Assembly (NCBI GenBank): GCA_016839765.1
Contig: JAEOTP010000032.1
Span: 1 to 40,502 of the forward strand
Direction: 5' to 3'
From: Promethearchaeota archaeon
GTDB lineage: Archaea > Asgardarchaeota > Lokiarchaeia > Sigyniarchaeales > SOKP01
DNA length: 40,502 bases
The notes under the pieces were generated by a model. That model saw only the letters and a list, made by a program, of their open reading frames with translations. It was not told the origin of the DNA and did no database searches. Positions 34,667-40,502 of this stretch are shown here, piece after piece (position 1 is the first letter of the stretch; each line of letters starts with the position of its first letter). Both the position numbers and the translations under genes were made by a program.

Positions 34667-35662
34667 TTGAATTCGAATGTTAATAGAAACCATGAAATTA
34701 TAGCATATATCTTATTAATCTTAACAGCTGTTATTTGGGGTGGTACTTGGCCATTAGGCCGCTGGTTAGTATCTGAAGAGGTTGGAGGAGCAACTATACC
34801 CCCACTGATGATAGCAGTGATTCGGTATTTTCTGGCTATAATTTGCTTTTTTCCCATTCTTAAATATAAAGAAGGATTATTGAATTGGAAATTTGCAAAG
34901 GAAAATTGGAGAATTTTAACTTTAATGGGACTATTATCTGTAACAATTTATCAGATAGGTTATCTTTTAGGTGAAATTTTCACTGCTGCAAGTGATGCCA
35001 GTATAATGGTCGCAACTAACGCTATTTGGGTTGTCATTCTTTCTACTAAATTCTTAAAAACAGAATTTTTTACCTGGAAAAAAGTTATTGGAACTCTTTT
35101 AGCATTCATAGCAGTTATTATTGTAGTAGGGTTTTCTCCGAATGTAGATGTCTCGAATCGTATTCTTGGAGATATATTAATATTGGTAGCCGCTTTTTCT
35201 TATGCTATATATACGGTAACTTCACGTTATTTTTTGAATAAAACCCAAGATAAGCCTAATGCTTATCAACCAAGCTCTTTATGGATAATAACATGGGTAT
35301 CTTTTTTCGGATTTTTAATAACCACCCCTATCGGATTACTTATTAGCCCGGAATTTTTTAATCCATTGGAATACCTAAGCATTCCGCCGCGAATATGGAT
35401 TGGGATTGCTTACTTAGCATTTCTCTCTACAGTAGGAGCATACACATTCTATTTAGAAGGTGTTAAACGTTTAAACGCTAGTAGAGCAGCAATTTTCCAA
35501 ACTTTAGTACCTTTATTTGGAGTAATCCTCTCTGCTATATTTTTAAAAGAAAAATTCGATATTTTTATCTATCCTTTTGCCTTATTTTTAGTAATATTGG
35601 GAATTTCACTTGTAAATCGTAAATCCTTGCATAAAAAGGGAGAAAAACCTAAAACAATTTGA
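34667..35662 (+). CDS. DMT/EamA family transporter
   Basis: IWGGTW...RY, GDILILVAAFSYAIY, P.FGVILSAIFLKE; about 10 TMs. Confidence 0.9.
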   Translation: MNSNVNRNHEIIAYILLILTAVIWGGTWPLGRWLVSEEVGGATIPPLMIAVIRYFLAIICFFPILKYKEGLLNWKFAKENWRILTLMGLLSVTIYQIGYLLGEIFTAASDASIMVATNAIWVVILSTKFLKTEFFTWKKVIGTLLAFIAVIIVVGFSPNVDVSNRILGDILILVAAFSYAIYTVTSRYFLNKTQDKPNAYQPSSLWIITWVSFFGFLITTPIGLLISPEFFNPLEYLSIPPRIWIGIAYLAFLSTVGAYTFYLEGVKRLNASRAAIFQTLVPLFGVILSAIFLKEKFDIFIYPFALFLVILGISLVNRKSLHKKGEKPKTI

Positions 35663-37212: not shown

Positions 37213-37689
37213 TCATTCTGGAATAATAATAGAGGGGTCTTCTTTTATTCGATCTAATACAATTTGGGTTTTTACTTCTTCTACCCCAGGAAGATTCCGT
37301 AATTTTTCAATTAAGCTCATGGAATCATTATGATTGAGACATTTTGCCATTATAAAAATTGGATAATCCCCTGTTATCACATAAGCATACTTTACTGTTT
37401 CCATACCTTCTATTTTATCTTTTACTTTATCTAATGGTTCTGAAGAATTTACCCTCAAAGATGCCATTACCATTTCACGATACCCTAATTGACGACAATC
37501 GATTAAAGCTACATATTTCTTAATCAAAACTTTTTCTAATTTCTGAATTCTAGCCCTAACCGCTGTAGGGCTTTTATCAATTTTTTCTGCTATTGATGCT
37601 ATCGTTAATTTTGCATCATTTTGTAAAAGATCTAAAATTTGCTTATCAAACTCATCAATATCAATATTGTTTACTTTACTAATCGTCAT
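37213..37689 (-). CDS. Lrp/AsnC family transcriptional regulator
   Basis: IDEFDKQILDLLQNDAK, HTH, VITGDY and LPGVEEVKTQIVL. Confidence 0.93.
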   Translation of the reverse strand: MTISKVNNIDIDEFDKQILDLLQNDAKLTIASIAEKIDKSPTAVRARIQKLEKVLIKKYVALIDCRQLGYREMVMASLRVNSSEPLDKVKDKIEGMETVKYAYVITGDYPIFIMAKCLNHNDSMSLIEKLRNLPGVEEVKTQIVLDRIKEDPSIIIPE

Positions 37690-37906
37690 TCTATCTTCCT
37701 TGATTATTATAATTCTATAGAAATTTGAAAATTATAAAAATTTTCATTTAAAATATCTATTCTAATTAAATTTAAATATTAATCATATATAATTTTTTCC
37801 TCTAAAAAAATGTTTGACTTTAGATTAATTCGCTATATATTAAAGTGGTTTATAAATGAAAAAACTATGATTTAAATATGAATCTATATTTTAACCTACA
37901 ATAGAG

Positions 37907-37928
37907 ATCACAATTAAATTTTTGTGAT
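37907..37928. promoter_or_regulatory. Candidate operator in the lrp/tusA divergent intergenic region
   Basis: ATCACAA-N8-TTGTGAT. Confidence 0.45.
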
Positions 37929-37975
37929 TAAAATAACAAAAAAAATAGTGAAAAAAACTAAAAAAGTTGAGAAAA

Positions 37976-38218
37976 ATGTCAGATTTAACATTAGGCGAAG
38001 TGATAAAACTAGACTGTTTAGGTAAAAAATGTCCGATGCCTGTTTTAATGACAAAAAAAGAGCTTAAAAAGATGACATCTGGTCAAACTCTTGAATTAAC
38101 TGTGGATGATATTGGAGCTTTAAAAGATGTTCCTGCTCTTTTAAATAAGACTGGTGATGAATTAGTCGAGACTAAACAAGATAATGGTAAAATTACATTC
38201 ATAATACACAAAGCTTAG
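37976..38218 (+). CDS. tusA: TusA/SirA family sulfur carrier
   Basis: LDCLGKKCPMP (CPxP); ATG at 37976 preferred as the start. Confidence 0.9.
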   Translation: MSDLTLGEVIKLDCLGKKCPMPVLMTKKELKKMTSGQTLELTVDDIGALKDVPALLNKTGDELVETKQDNGKITFIIHKA

Positions 38219-38246
38219 AAACCAAATAATAAAGAGAGGTTATAAT

Positions 38247-38615
38247 TTGGCAACATATACATTCATGGTATCTACTGAACCATATAAATTTGAAGCAATG
38301 GACTCTCTACTTAATTTATGTAAAGCAGTTATAGAAAAAGGACGTTCAATTAAAGGAATTTTCTTCTATGGAAGTGGAGTTTACAATATAAAAAAAGATA
38401 TTGAAACTGGTATAACAGTTCGCAATTTGCCAACACGGTTGGAACAGTTTATTAAAGAACATAATATTCCTGTTGCTGGCTGTACGACATGGATTGGGTT
38501 ATGTGGATTGAAGGAACAGTGCTTTATTGATGGAGCAAAGGAAGAGGGCTTAGGTGAATTGTCAAACTGGACTGCTGAATCAGAAAAGTTAATTATGTTC
38601 GGAACAGGGGGATAG
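38247..38615 (+). CDS. dsrE: DsrE/TusD-like sulfurtransferase subunit
   Basis: PY, IFFYGSGVYN, active-site Cys in VAGCTT, GLGEL; SD-like GAGAGG upstream. Confidence 0.8.
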   Translation: MATYTFMVSTEPYKFEAMDSLLNLCKAVIEKGRSIKGIFFYGSGVYNIKKDIETGITVRNLPTRLEQFIKEHNIPVAGCTTWIGLCGLKEQCFIDGAKEEGLGELSNWTAESEKLIMFGTGG

Positions 38616-38620
38616 ACGCG

Positions 38621-38989
38621 ATGATTGAATCAGTTGTAATAGTGAGTGACCAATCTCCGATTGGAAAGAATTCTGCCCGCGAAGCTTTAAGGTTAGGCGC
38701 AGGATTTATGGGATTAGGGGAAGAGATTGACTGCAAAGTGGTACTTATGGGTGATGCGGTTTACTTAATAAGTAAACACGCAGACCCAACAATACTAGGA
38801 ATAGACTCTTTTGATGAACCATTAGAGATGGCAGAACTTTCAGATTTAGAAATCTTAGTACTTGATACAGCACTGGAGGACGCAGGCTTAACTGAACAAG
38901 ATCTCGTAAATTATGAAGGTTTATTGATAATTAATATTGAAGATCTTTCAAAATTATTTGACAATGCAGATACAATCTTTAGATTTTAA
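38621..38989 (+). CDS. dsrF: DsrF/TusC-like subunit
   Basis: SPIG...AREALR and VLMGDAVY; position between dsrE and dsrH. Confidence 0.78.
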   Translation: MIESVVIVSDQSPIGKNSAREALRLGAGFMGLGEEIDCKVVLMGDAVYLISKHADPTILGIDSFDEPLEMAELSDLEILVLDTALEDAGLTEQDLVNYEGLLIINIEDLSKLFDNADTIFRF

Positions 38990-39003
38990 GGTGGTGAATT
39001 AAG

Positions 39004-39345
39004 ATGGAACAAAATTTTGATATGATTTACTTATTTGGATTTAGCCCCAGATATGGAAATGAATTAAATCGATTATTACCAATTATTAGAAACCATTTAC
39101 AAAAAGGAAGCTCCATAGGAATGGTTCTAATTCAAGATGGAGTTATTGGCGCTTCTTCAAAAGGAAAAATGATAAACTCAATGAAGCAACTTGGAAACTT
39201 AAATTTTAAACTGTTTGTTATGAAACCAGATTTAAAAGCTAGAGGGATTCCATTAGAGCATACAAATGAAAATATTAAACCGATTGACTATACAGAGCTC
39301 GTTGATCTATTAGATAATTCTGGAAAAGTTATATCCTGGATGTAA
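39004..39345 (+). CDS. dsrH: DsrH/TusB-like subunit
   Basis: LIQDGV, DLKARGI, IDY.ELVDL and ISW. Confidence 0.85.
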   Translation: MEQNFDMIYLFGFSPRYGNELNRLLPIIRNHLQKGSSIGMVLIQDGVIGASSKGKMINSMKQLGNLNFKLFVMKPDLKARGIPLEHTNENIKPIDYTELVDLLDNSGKVISWM

Positions 39346-39414
39346 TTTAAGAAACTACAATATGATTTAAAGTTAGTATTATAAAAATTTTTTTAAAAAA
39401 AACCAATAATCATG

Positions 39415-39431
39415 GTTAACAATTTGTTAAC
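39415..39431. promoter_or_regulatory. Palindrome upstream of dsrE2-hdrC
   Basis: GTTAACAA-T-TTGTTAAC. Confidence 0.45.
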
Positions 39432-39469
39432 GCAAATTAGATAATAAATACAAAAAAAAGAAAAATAAG

Positions 39470-39895
39470 GTGAAAATTTTGGCTGAAACCGTAAATTTTA
39501 TTGTAAAGGATAAATCATTCGAAAAGTTCGCAATGATGATGATCCTTGGAACAACAGGTGATGCCATGGACACTAAAATGAATTTCTTCTTTACTTTTTG
39601 GGGATTAAATCTTTTAAAAAAGAAATTTAAACCTAAAGTTGCTGGAATGCCTGCTCCTATGAAAGGTATGGCAGCAAATATGTTTAAGAAAAGAATGAAA
39701 AAATTCGGAATAGAGGATCCATGGGGAATGATTAAAGACGCTGTTGATAATGGAAATATGAAGTTATATCCATGTCAAATGACTATGGATTTAATGGGAA
39801 TAAAAAGAGAAGAATTACTTGATTGGGTAGAAGAACCTGTTGGTGCCGCTTCATTTTTAGAAATGAGTGACGGAGGCAGAATAGTTTCATTATAA
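39470..39895 (+). CDS. DsrE2-like (DsrE/DsrF/DrsH-like) sulfur carrier
   Basis: FFTFWGL, PCQMTMDLMG and VGAASFLE. Confidence 0.88.
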   Translation: MKILAETVNFIVKDKSFEKFAMMMILGTTGDAMDTKMNFFFTFWGLNLLKKKFKPKVAGMPAPMKGMAANMFKKRMKKFGIEDPWGMIKDAVDNGNMKLYPCQMTMDLMGIKREELLDWVEEPVGAASFLEMSDGGRIVSL

Positions 39896-39945
39896 TAAAT
39901 AATAAATTATTTTTTTTTATTTTTTAACAAAAAAAGTGATGTTAA

Positions 39946-40502
39946 ATGTCTGATGTGAAAGAAGAACACCGTGAGTTTAAAACGGATGAAGATTTTGATC
40001 AAGATTTTTTTAAAAATATAGAAAGAAAATCAAATATTTGGCAGTGCATCCAATGTGGAACTTGTACAGCGAGTTGCGAAAGTGGGAGATGGACTGCTTT
40101 AAAGACGCGTTCAATTGTGAGAAAAGTAGTTTTAGGAGATTTATCGGTTTTAAAAGATCCAGATATTTGGCTGTGTACTACATGCTATCAGTGTTACGAG
40201 CGATGTCCACGTGATGTAAGACCTACCGATGTAATTATGGAGTTAAGAAATTATGCTACAAAACTAGGAAATATTTCTCCTAATCATAGGGCTGTTGTAG
40301 GTTATCTAAAAAACTTTGGACATGCTGTACCGATAAATGATGAGGTAAAAAAACAGCGCGTCGAATTAGGATTAGAAGAATTACCCCCTACTGCGTTTAA
40401 ATTTAAACAAGAGGGGGATGATAAAGATTTAAAGAATATTGAAGAACATATGTTCGATTTACCTCCAGTTAAGGAGGATAAAAAAGAAGAGGAGGAGGCA
40501 TA
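39946..40502 (+). CDS. hdrC: Heterodisulfide reductase subunit C-like 2[4Fe-4S] protein (probable stop codon cut by the window edge)
   Basis: Not in the ORF track. ATG 39946 reads MSDVKEE...WQCIQCGTCTASCESG...IWLCTTCYQCYERCPRDV.PTDVI..LRN...GHAVP...LGLEELPPT; the last in-frame codon begins TA. Confidence 0.9.
   Translation, partial: MSDVKEEHREFKTDEDFDQDFFKNIERKSNIWQCIQCGTCTASCESGRWTALKTRSIVRKVVLGDLSVLKDPDIWLCTTCYQCYERCPRDVRPTDVIMELRNYATKLGNISPNHRAVVGYLKNFGHAVPINDEVKKQRVELGLEELPPTAFKFKQEGDDKDLKNIEEHMFDLPPVKEDKKEEEEA

Follow-up and report, generated by a model that had tools for sequence, protein, structure and literature searches.

The 3′ end of a 40,502-nt contig of a Promethearchaeota archaeon of the class Lokiarchaeia (GCA_016839765.1, JAEOTP010000032.1) joins a set of sulfur-carrier genes to a heterodisulfide reductase (Hdr) gene. 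This entire contig (G000:C4) is the window to which all coordinates refer, its DNA has a G+C content of ∼29%, and the host genome (G000) is 95.9% complete. Seven genes lie at positions 37213-40502, where the listing of open reading frames (ORFs) and profile searches confirmed the order and strands given by the initial annotation, i.e. five sulfur-carrier genes followed by hdrC (tusA-dsrE-dsrF-dsrH-dsrE2-hdrC), all co-oriented and divergent from the regulator gene lrp. We propose that these carriers hand an S-S species, e.g. a persulfide, to a hydrogenase-free Hdr fed by NAD(P)H and/or F420H2, a reading that we consider about evenly balanced between right and wrong.

The arrangement of genes is not due to chance, because it recurs wherever the contigs allow a check: dsrE2 (or dsrE2-lrp in family f2, where lrp sits between dsrE2 and hdrC) lies upstream of hdrC in 23 of 23 Lokiarchaeales loci whose contig spans the upstream side of hdrC. 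These loci belong to families f1, f2 and f4. The linkage is thus strongly conserved, and it survives rearrangement, as in G044, which has a 3-kb insertion. In family f7 (G060), the genes directly 3′ of dsrE2 encode another Hdr (32-40% identity), and a tusA is embedded among them. DsrE2 orthologues were found in 26 of 36 genomes of the same genus and in 10 of 14 genomes of a sister family, and among the 120 matches listed from a large protein collection there were close Lokiarchaeial relatives only.

The cluster continues beyond the window. Because contig G000:C4 ends in ‘TA’, two bases into the stop codon of hdrC, this gene lacks only the final base of its stop codon; comparison of this 3′ end with the other contig ends of the genome found no overlap for k = 15-127. 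In relatives, hdrC is followed by hdrB, hdrA, mvhD, an MvhG-like gene, an FrhB/NfnB fusion gene and a second tusA (tusA2), which together make up a 12-gene unit, and in a locus of the same genus (L021) Pfam and NCBIfam profiles placed these genes directly after hdrC with no break. The full order occurs in members of families f1, f2 and f4; one of the f2 members is the cultured organism Ca. Lokiarchaeum ossiferum, whose closed genome has the cluster within positions 2,411,946-2,432,368 of CP104013.1. By protein similarity, the continuation in the host's own genome was traced to the reverse strand at one end of contig C58, running from residue 19 of HdrA to tusA2 with 75-96% identity. From this row hdrB alone is missing, as it falls in the ∼1 kb assembly gap between C4 and C58, and hence our results for HdrB come from orthologous loci. 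The downstream hdrB, hdrA and mvh genes that the initial annotation had suggested looking for are therefore present, as hdrB-hdrA-mvhD in relatives and as an hdrA fragment plus mvhD on C58. No gene for a hydrogenase large subunit (MvhA) was found within the 12-gene cluster. The coordinates and profile scores of all features are given in Table 1.

Table 1. Features of the relay-Hdr locus: window features by position, then the genes that follow hdrC in locus L021 of the same genus
Feature	Position	Strand	Assignment and scores
lrp	37213..37689	-	Lrp/AsnC-family regulator, 158 aa, helix-turn-helix and RAM ligand-binding domains; PF13404 52.6 bits, PF01037 44.3 bits
lrp-tusA spacer	37690..37975	.	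candidate divergent control region; TATA-like boxes, inverted repeat
tusA	37976..38218	+	sulfur carrier with CPxP Cys; PF01206 84.7 bits
dsrE	38247..38615	+	DsrE/TusD-like subunit, active-site Cys79; PF02635 46.2 bits; TIGR03012 50.9, below cut-off 89
dsrF	38621..38989	+	DsrF/TusC-like subunit, position kept in relatives; PF02635 45.8 bits; TIGR03010 32.8 bits, below cut-off
dsrH	39004..39345	+	DsrH/TusB-like subunit; PF04077 55.3 bits; TIGR03011 63.5, above cut-off 49.2
dsrE2	39479..39895	+	DrsE_2 family, soluble, ∼138 aa; PF13686 88.3 bits
T-run	39910..39925	+	T9-A-T6, then GTGA Shine-Dalgarno-like motif, within the 50-bp dsrE2-hdrC spacer
hdrC	39946..40502 (ORF to 40500)	+	methanogen-type heterodisulfide reductase subunit C; TIGR03290 176.8, cut-off 160
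hdrB (L021)	after hdrC		304 aa, two CCG domains; TIGR03288 377, cut-off 345
hdrA (L021)			676 aa; residues 23-664 align with 2-646 of 5odc_A, 634 bits
mvhD (L021)	after hdrA		PF02662 111 bits
MvhG-like gene (L021)			iron-sulfur protein, 411 aa
frhB::nfnB (L021)			donor protein, 822 aa; FrhB N- and C-terminal parts split by an NfnB/GltD-like NAD(P)H-flavin module
tusA2 (L021)	last in row		divergent second TusA, 79 aa

The far end of the cluster also carries a sulfur carrier. All 141 matches to TusA2 came from Lokiarchaeia/Promethearchaeota-type records, and in every locus examined its gene lies within the Hdr half, normally as the last gene, with a second donor gene after it in G052. Fused forms of TusA2 among longer proteins (a Rosetta-stone test) were not found, which is weak evidence, and a complex prediction for HdrB, HdrC and TusA2 gave neither support nor counter-evidence and was not used either way. 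Among solved structures, the FrhB::NfnB donor protein is most similar to NfnA of 9n5u, NfnB of 4ylf and the N-terminus of Fsr in 7np8; in G032 (L017) this protein has 384 aa and lacks the NfnB/GltD insert.

A second pairing of the same kind is present in the host genome. At C46:13000-27000 (L059), the genes hypD-hypE-dsrH-dsrF-dsrE-tsuA(yeeE)-tusA are divergent from vhuG-vhuA-hdrC′-hdrB′, and this pairing is retained in 8 of 10 relatives examined and collinear in G050. From its gene content this locus looks like a candidate H2-dependent sulfur-compound reductase, and with a hydrogenase as partner only the reductive direction is thermodynamically open to it, given the redox potentials. The strongest argument that the association of relay and Hdr is functional is that two independent, conserved DsrEFH/TusA-HdrBC pairings occur in one lineage.

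The residues on which carrier function would depend are intact. The CPxP cysteine of TusA was invariant in all full-length sequences among 32 aligned rows (two rows are truncated and do not reach this region), Cys79 of DsrE was found in each of 25 sequences and corresponds in alignment to Cys78 of Allochromatium vinosum DsrE (2hy5_A), and the cysteine in the Y-P/A-C motif of DsrE2 was invariant across 17 diverse Asgard sequences. The translation of DsrH contains no cysteine. The nearest solved relative of DsrE2 is 2qs7_A (61 bits). We also considered additional cysteines (CLGKKCP in TusA, CGLVCP in TusA2 and a second Cys in DsrE) as a DsrC-like redox pair; they are not conserved among orthologues, and therefore cannot define a mechanism.

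The Hdr of the cluster is of methanogen type, as had been proposed for HdrC. This assignment is supported, since HdrC and HdrB pass the cut-offs of their NCBIfam equivalog models and HdrA aligns end-to-end with 5odc_A but only in part with the sHdrA structure 6tjr_A, where residues 342-587 alone match (130 bits). HdrC scored 136-143 bits against the HdrC chains of the solved methanogen complexes 5odc and 9sfi (137 bits for 5odc_C), and is 185 aa long and 91% identical to its 186-aa orthologue in L021; against methanogen homologues HdrB scored 306-313 bits and HdrA 634-651 bits. Ten cluster cysteines of HdrB (C13, C45, C46, C82, C85, C158, C198, C199, C236 and C239) were invariant in 24 sequences. 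In HdrB of M. thermolithotrophicus, coenzyme M (CoM) and coenzyme B (CoB) are contacted by Arg14, Gly46, Gly198, Arg201, Phe233 and Arg240 (PMC13261682). Four of these six contacts (Arg14, Gly46, Gly198 and Phe233) are retained in the HdrB of the cluster, which has Lys for Arg201 and Thr or Ser for Arg240, although position 240 is not diagnostic because the Hdr of 8rvv_B has Val there. Arg201 is retained in a second canonical HdrB of the same genome, and the hydrogenase-linked HdrB′ on C46 departs at five of the six positions. Judged from these residues, the pocket would accommodate a small disulfide no less readily than one bound to a protein, and it may also admit a persulfide, a short polysulfide or a cysteine carried by an exposed loop. 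The region C13:10000-27000 (L058) contains a second canonical pair of hdrC and hdrB (HdrC TIGR03290 178.5 bits) together with mvhD and a 1648-aa open frame with MvhD- and GltD-like matches, and the genome encodes about two dozen CCG-domain proteins.

The classical acceptors of such carriers are absent. In searches of the whole genome, PF04358 (DsrC/TusE) gave no match at E ≤ 1, PF01077 (NIR_SIR, siroheme sulfite reductase) gave none, and PF03054 (MnmA) gave weak N-terminal PP-loop fragments only (≤28 bits). The initial annotation had noted that dsrC/tusE, mnmA and dsrAB are missing from the window, and this holds for the genome as a whole; nor was a DsrC/TusE plus thiouridylase route, which would have offered another explanation of the carriers, found elsewhere in it. 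That the host is not a methanogen is likewise borne out, as neither mcrA nor ComA was detected in the genome, with CoB synthesis and an alternative CoM route outside the search. No gene for a lipoate-binding protein, for which the initial annotation had suggested looking downstream, is linked to the cluster; both GcvH-family genes are elsewhere, on C57 and C75. Because these markers went undetected and the GcvH genes are unlinked, methanogenesis, the Tus thiouridine pathway, Dsr and the sulfur-oxidizing sHdr-LbpA system all fail to account for the genes, and for lack of a linked lipoate-binding protein the cluster is not an sHdr system.

Seven TusA-family genes are present in the genome. At C17:72000-84000 (L060), tusA-dsrE-iscS-iscU is followed by a gene for a 796-aa CoA-disulfide-reductase::rhodanese::TusA::rhodanese fusion, and this locus looks like a biosynthetic or persulfide-reductase and iron-sulfur assembly locus. 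Since a biosynthetic relay is thus encoded on C17, the Lrp-TusA-Hdr cluster is not needed for one. Genes for rubrerythrin and desulfoferrodoxin were seen after the fusion gene.

Taken together, we infer the following sequence of events for the cluster. The carrier proteins would take up sulfane sulfur as cysteine persulfides and present an S-S species, which could be a persulfide, a polysulfide or a disulfide linked to a carrier, to HdrB, whose two noncubane [4Fe-4S] clusters would reduce it to thiol and H2S. FrhB::NfnB would accept the electrons of NAD(P)H and/or F420H2, which would then pass via the MvhG-like protein and MvhD to the flavin of HdrA, with no hydrogenase involved, and HdrA may bifurcate electrons to ferredoxin. 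For a fermenter in sulfidic sediment, such a system could serve as an electron sink or for removal of reactive sulfur, and it is probably controlled by Lrp. In M. voltae, FeS2 in place of sulfide went with a 6-7-fold higher abundance of HdrB2C2 (PMC9431491), which we count in favour of this reading.

A further-reaching version, which we find unlikely as a whole, is that Lokiarchaeales possess an undescribed flavin-based bifurcation in which the electrons of NAD(P)H or F420H2 would go to sulfane sulfur on the carriers at HdrB and the energy set free would be captured as reduced ferredoxin, with the sister system of relay and VhuAG-HdrC′B′ performing an H2-dependent, non-bifurcating version of the same chemistry.

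Several observations weigh against a functional transfer from carriers to Hdr. Within the genus, G005 (L030) shows a clean excision of hdrC through frhB::nfnB, with a 3′ stub of tusA2 left beside dsrE2, and thus retains all carriers without the Hdr genes. Two further genomes, G029 (L053) and G008, are reduced to tusA-dsrE2, and in G029 the Hdr genes are absent and a tusA2 3′ stub is present. In Ca. Atabeyarchaeum deiterrae and in the Asgard families f8, f24 and f32, no Hdr gene was found within 8 kb of the carriers; here, tusA-dsrE-(F)-H-dsrE2 or dsrE2 alone adjoins an Lrp gene, and the other neighbours are unrelated. Since carriers and Lrp occur by themselves in these lineages, the relay must have a function that needs no adjacent Hdr, and the relay with its regulator is an older, self-sufficient unit that was joined to an Hdr module in Lokiarchaeales. 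Moreover, the tunnel predicted for HdrB is narrow and positively charged and would suit a small anionic disulfide, and not obviously a folded protein. The feasibility of NAD(P)H-driven bifurcation with a persulfide as acceptor is also uncertain.

The spacers of the cluster add to these objections. Oligo-T stretches act as termination signals in archaea, and the T-run between dsrE2 and hdrC is conserved, with 7-15 T in 13 of 13 aligned relatives of the genus and at least 9 T in 12 of the 13. This suggests termination or an internal promoter at this junction, and the spacer between dsrH and dsrE2 has a T-run and a palindrome as well. Two or three transcription units thus seem as probable as a single operon, and because the T-run is conserved and lrp lies at the same junction in family f2, two transcription units are suggested. 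In the lrp-tusA spacer, TATA-like boxes occur at 37770 and at 37870-37878 (ATTTAAATA), of which the latter was nearly invariant in an alignment of 16 relatives. Between this tusA-side box and the start of tusA lies an inverted repeat, ATCACA-N10-TGTGAT (37907-37928), whose arms co-vary among genus relatives in the same alignment. These elements may represent a promoter, an operator or a leader hairpin.

On these grounds, the locus could instead consist of two separate units, in which Lrp-TusA-DsrEFH-DsrE2 would serve sulfur trafficking or reactive-sulfur homeostasis, Hdr would reduce a small (hetero)disulfide, and their adjacency would reflect shared regulation or history. Besides the free-standing relays with Lrp in other Asgard lineages, the Hdr-less relay of G005, the conserved T-run with lrp inserted at the junction in f2, and a pocket close to that for CoM-S-S-CoB, this account gains from a scan of genome contigs, in which most DsrE2 genes across prokaryotes pair simply with tusA, the bacterial ones being mostly paired with tusA alone. 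However, the junction is present in every checkable locus and has survived several rearrangements, the Hdr genes have a second TusA fixed at their distal end, a second relay adjoins another HdrC′B′ in the same genome, and no candidate small-thiol pathway was found in the genome, ComA being absent. We therefore regard two separate units as a serious account, though clearly a less probable one than transfer from relay to Hdr. For the hybrid of relay and Hdr put forward in the initial annotation, it follows that gene content, Hdr type, host and linkage stand, whereas carrier-bound persulfides or disulfides as the Hdr substrate are drawn from gene order, and this part is tempered by the free-standing carriers, the T-run at the junction and the CoM/CoB-like pocket.

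The likeness of single domains to TusA and TusBCD raises the question of classical thiolation, i.e. of tRNA 2-thiouridine or cofactors, or of sulfur supply for assembly of the iron-sulfur clusters of Hdr. A DsrH that lacks cysteine, as TusB does and unlike the DsrH of sulfur oxidizers, agrees with such a role, and maturation genes often adjoin the genes of their target proteins. Nevertheless, the genome contains neither TusE/DsrC nor a true MnmA, all Tus equivalogs except TusB score below cut-off, an IscS-IscU-TusA-DsrE locus exists elsewhere, and methanogen hdr genes are not known to have such an accompanying relay, so that we judge this role very improbable.

Transfer of selenium is no easier to sustain. 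In this account, TusA/YedF-like and DsrE-like proteins would traffic selenium for selenoproteins and Hdr would supply the reducing power. This lokiarchaeon probably uses selenocysteine, as three MvhD/VhuD-family genes (C43:12816-13181, C35:18970-19338 and C59:58024-58389) each have two in-frame TGA codons; TusA2 and the TusA on C46 score slightly better against the YedF than against the TusA models, and selenium depletion increases TusA/TusD transcripts in M. maripaludis (PMC11097638). The YedF scores of 33-59 bits, however, are far below the cut-off of 79, the first TusA scores higher to TusA, and no selD, selA or selB is linked to the cluster. The AIR-synthase-family gene beside the C46 relay was considered as a possible SelD and rejected, as it is HypE (TIGR02124 375 bits) and adjoins HypD. 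We consider a selenium relay very improbable.

Just as remote is an oxidative, sHdr-like system in which carrier-delivered sulfane sulfur would be oxidized with electrons passing to NAD(P)+: sHdr is the sole experimentally studied coupling of TusA/DsrE with Hdr and is oxidative (PMC11094781, PMC6067878), and Metallosphaera shows dsrE2-tusA-hdrC1B1A, but a second HdrC2B2 pair and a linked LbpA are both missing here, HdrA is of the long bifurcating type with MvhD and not the 349-aa sHdrA, the host is of a strictly anaerobic fermenter type with no sulfite-handling enzyme detected in its genome, and the sister system on C46 carries a hydrogenase.

With MvhAGD-HdrABC of hydrogenotrophic methanogens (5odc, 8rvu, 9sfi), the cluster shares close HdrC, HdrB and HdrA homologues with the ten CCG cysteines, together with MvhD and an MvhG-like subunit. 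It differs from them by the lack of MvhA, in whose place stands the 822-aa FrhB with its NfnB/GltD-like insert, by a host without mcrA and ComA, by the six sulfur-carrier genes that flank the Hdr genes, and by the two substitutions for Arg201 and Arg240 in HdrB. In the sHdr-LbpA system, found with TusA/DsrE3/DsrE2B in the sulfur oxidizers Hyphomicrobium and Metallosphaera (PMC11094781, PMC4175335, PMC6067878), TusA/DsrE-family carriers also directly adjoin hdrC-hdrB-hdrA, as seen in M. yellowstonensis (L114). In contrast to it, with its two HdrBC pairs in the order hdrC1-hdrB1-hdrA-hyp-hdrC2-hdrB2, the Lokiarchaeial cluster has a single hdrC-hdrB pair followed by hdrA-mvhD, with no hdrC2B2 and no linked LbpA, a long HdrA (676 aa) plus MvhD instead of the short 349-aa type that lacks ferredoxin domains, and a full DsrEFH trio in an anaerobic host, for which the reductive direction is likelier. 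DsrE2 or TusA thus adjoins Hdr-type enzymes in the sHdr loci of Sulfolobales, and does so in a Qmo-like cluster of Spirochaetia as well. In the latter (L077 and L079, from metagenome-assembled genomes of Spirochaetia and an uncultured bacterium), the order is arsR-tusA-mvhD-hdrA/qmoA-like-hdrA/qmoB-like-orf-qmoC-like-dsrE2, so that the genes of an Hdr/Qmo-type complex are bracketed by TusA and DsrE2.

Hydrogenase-independent Hdr complexes are FlxABCD-HdrABC of Desulfovibrio and the F420H2-dependent HdrA2B2C2 of Methanosarcina, in which a flavoprotein module feeds HdrA via an MvhD-type domain, and for Flx-Hdr a disulfide other than CoM/CoB, that of DsrC, has been proposed as substrate. Compared by description, the Lokiarchaeial system differs from both in its donor, an FrhB::NfnB fusion plus an MvhG-like protein, in the lack of DsrC and in having sulfur carriers in the cluster; variants of Hdr have been reviewed (PMC6019823).

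DsrEFH/TusBCD with DsrC/TusE (A. vinosum 2hy5, Escherichia coli 2d1p) resembles the relay in the E-F-H order, the active-site Cys of DsrE and the upstream tusA. The Lokiarchaeial genome differs in that no DsrC/TusE, DsrAB or MnmA was found anywhere in it; its DsrE and DsrF score below the cut-offs of the TusD and TusC equivalogs, and its DsrH lacks cysteine, whereas Cys20 of DsrH is conserved in sulfur oxidizers. DsrMKJOP-DsrC, in which a CCG-domain, HdrB/D-like subunit reduces the DsrC trisulfide (PMC10861901), provides a precedent for a noncubane cluster acting on a substrate that a protein carries. That complex resides in the membrane, is linked to quinones and finds its substrate on the flexible C-terminal arm of DsrC; no counterpart of this arm is evident on the Lokiarchaeial TusA or DsrE2.

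As for the remaining features, the tusA ORF (37967-38218) opens at TTG 37967, and its likely start is ATG 37976, as in relatives; the dsrE2 ORF (39470-39895) opens at GTG 39470, and TTG 39479 is the likely start. No NCBIfam equivalog reached its cut-off for Lrp, the top match being LysM (74.9; cut-off 180), and lrp adjoins the carriers in all Asgard loci examined, Hdr-less ones included. An EamA-family transporter gene lies at 34667-35662, 1.5 kb past lrp; L016 and L073 likewise have its orthologue (76-77% identity) close to the cluster, and this gene may be linked to the Lrp regulator.

The oxidative sHdr system already provides a case of relay-Hdr coupling, and alternative donors have likewise been described for Hdr complexes. 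The combination of a canonical bifurcating-type HdrCBA-MvhD with an FrhB::NfnB donor, a DsrEFH-DsrE2 relay and two TusA proteins appears to be undescribed: a literature search for Asgard or Lokiarchaeota with TusA, DsrE or HdrABC, with subscription journals outside its scope, found no description of the cluster. The substrate of HdrABC in organisms that lack CoM and CoB is an old open question, which is acute for Asgard archaea, whose genomes abound in Hdr and Mvh modules. The conserved link between a persulfide relay and a canonical HdrCBA offers a concrete, testable candidate substrate, and the cluster is present in the cultured Ca. Lokiarchaeum ossiferum. For MK-D1, the published IJSEM description covers tests with sulfate, thiosulfate and nitrate only (PMC11316595). 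If transfer from relay to Hdr takes place, the metabolic models of Lokiarchaeia on which syntrophy scenarios of eukaryogenesis are based would need to include reduction of sulfane sulfur. If the bifurcation proposed above were also to hold, cytoplasmic sulfur reduction would be a core electron sink and a means of energy conservation in cultured relatives of the eukaryotic host lineage.

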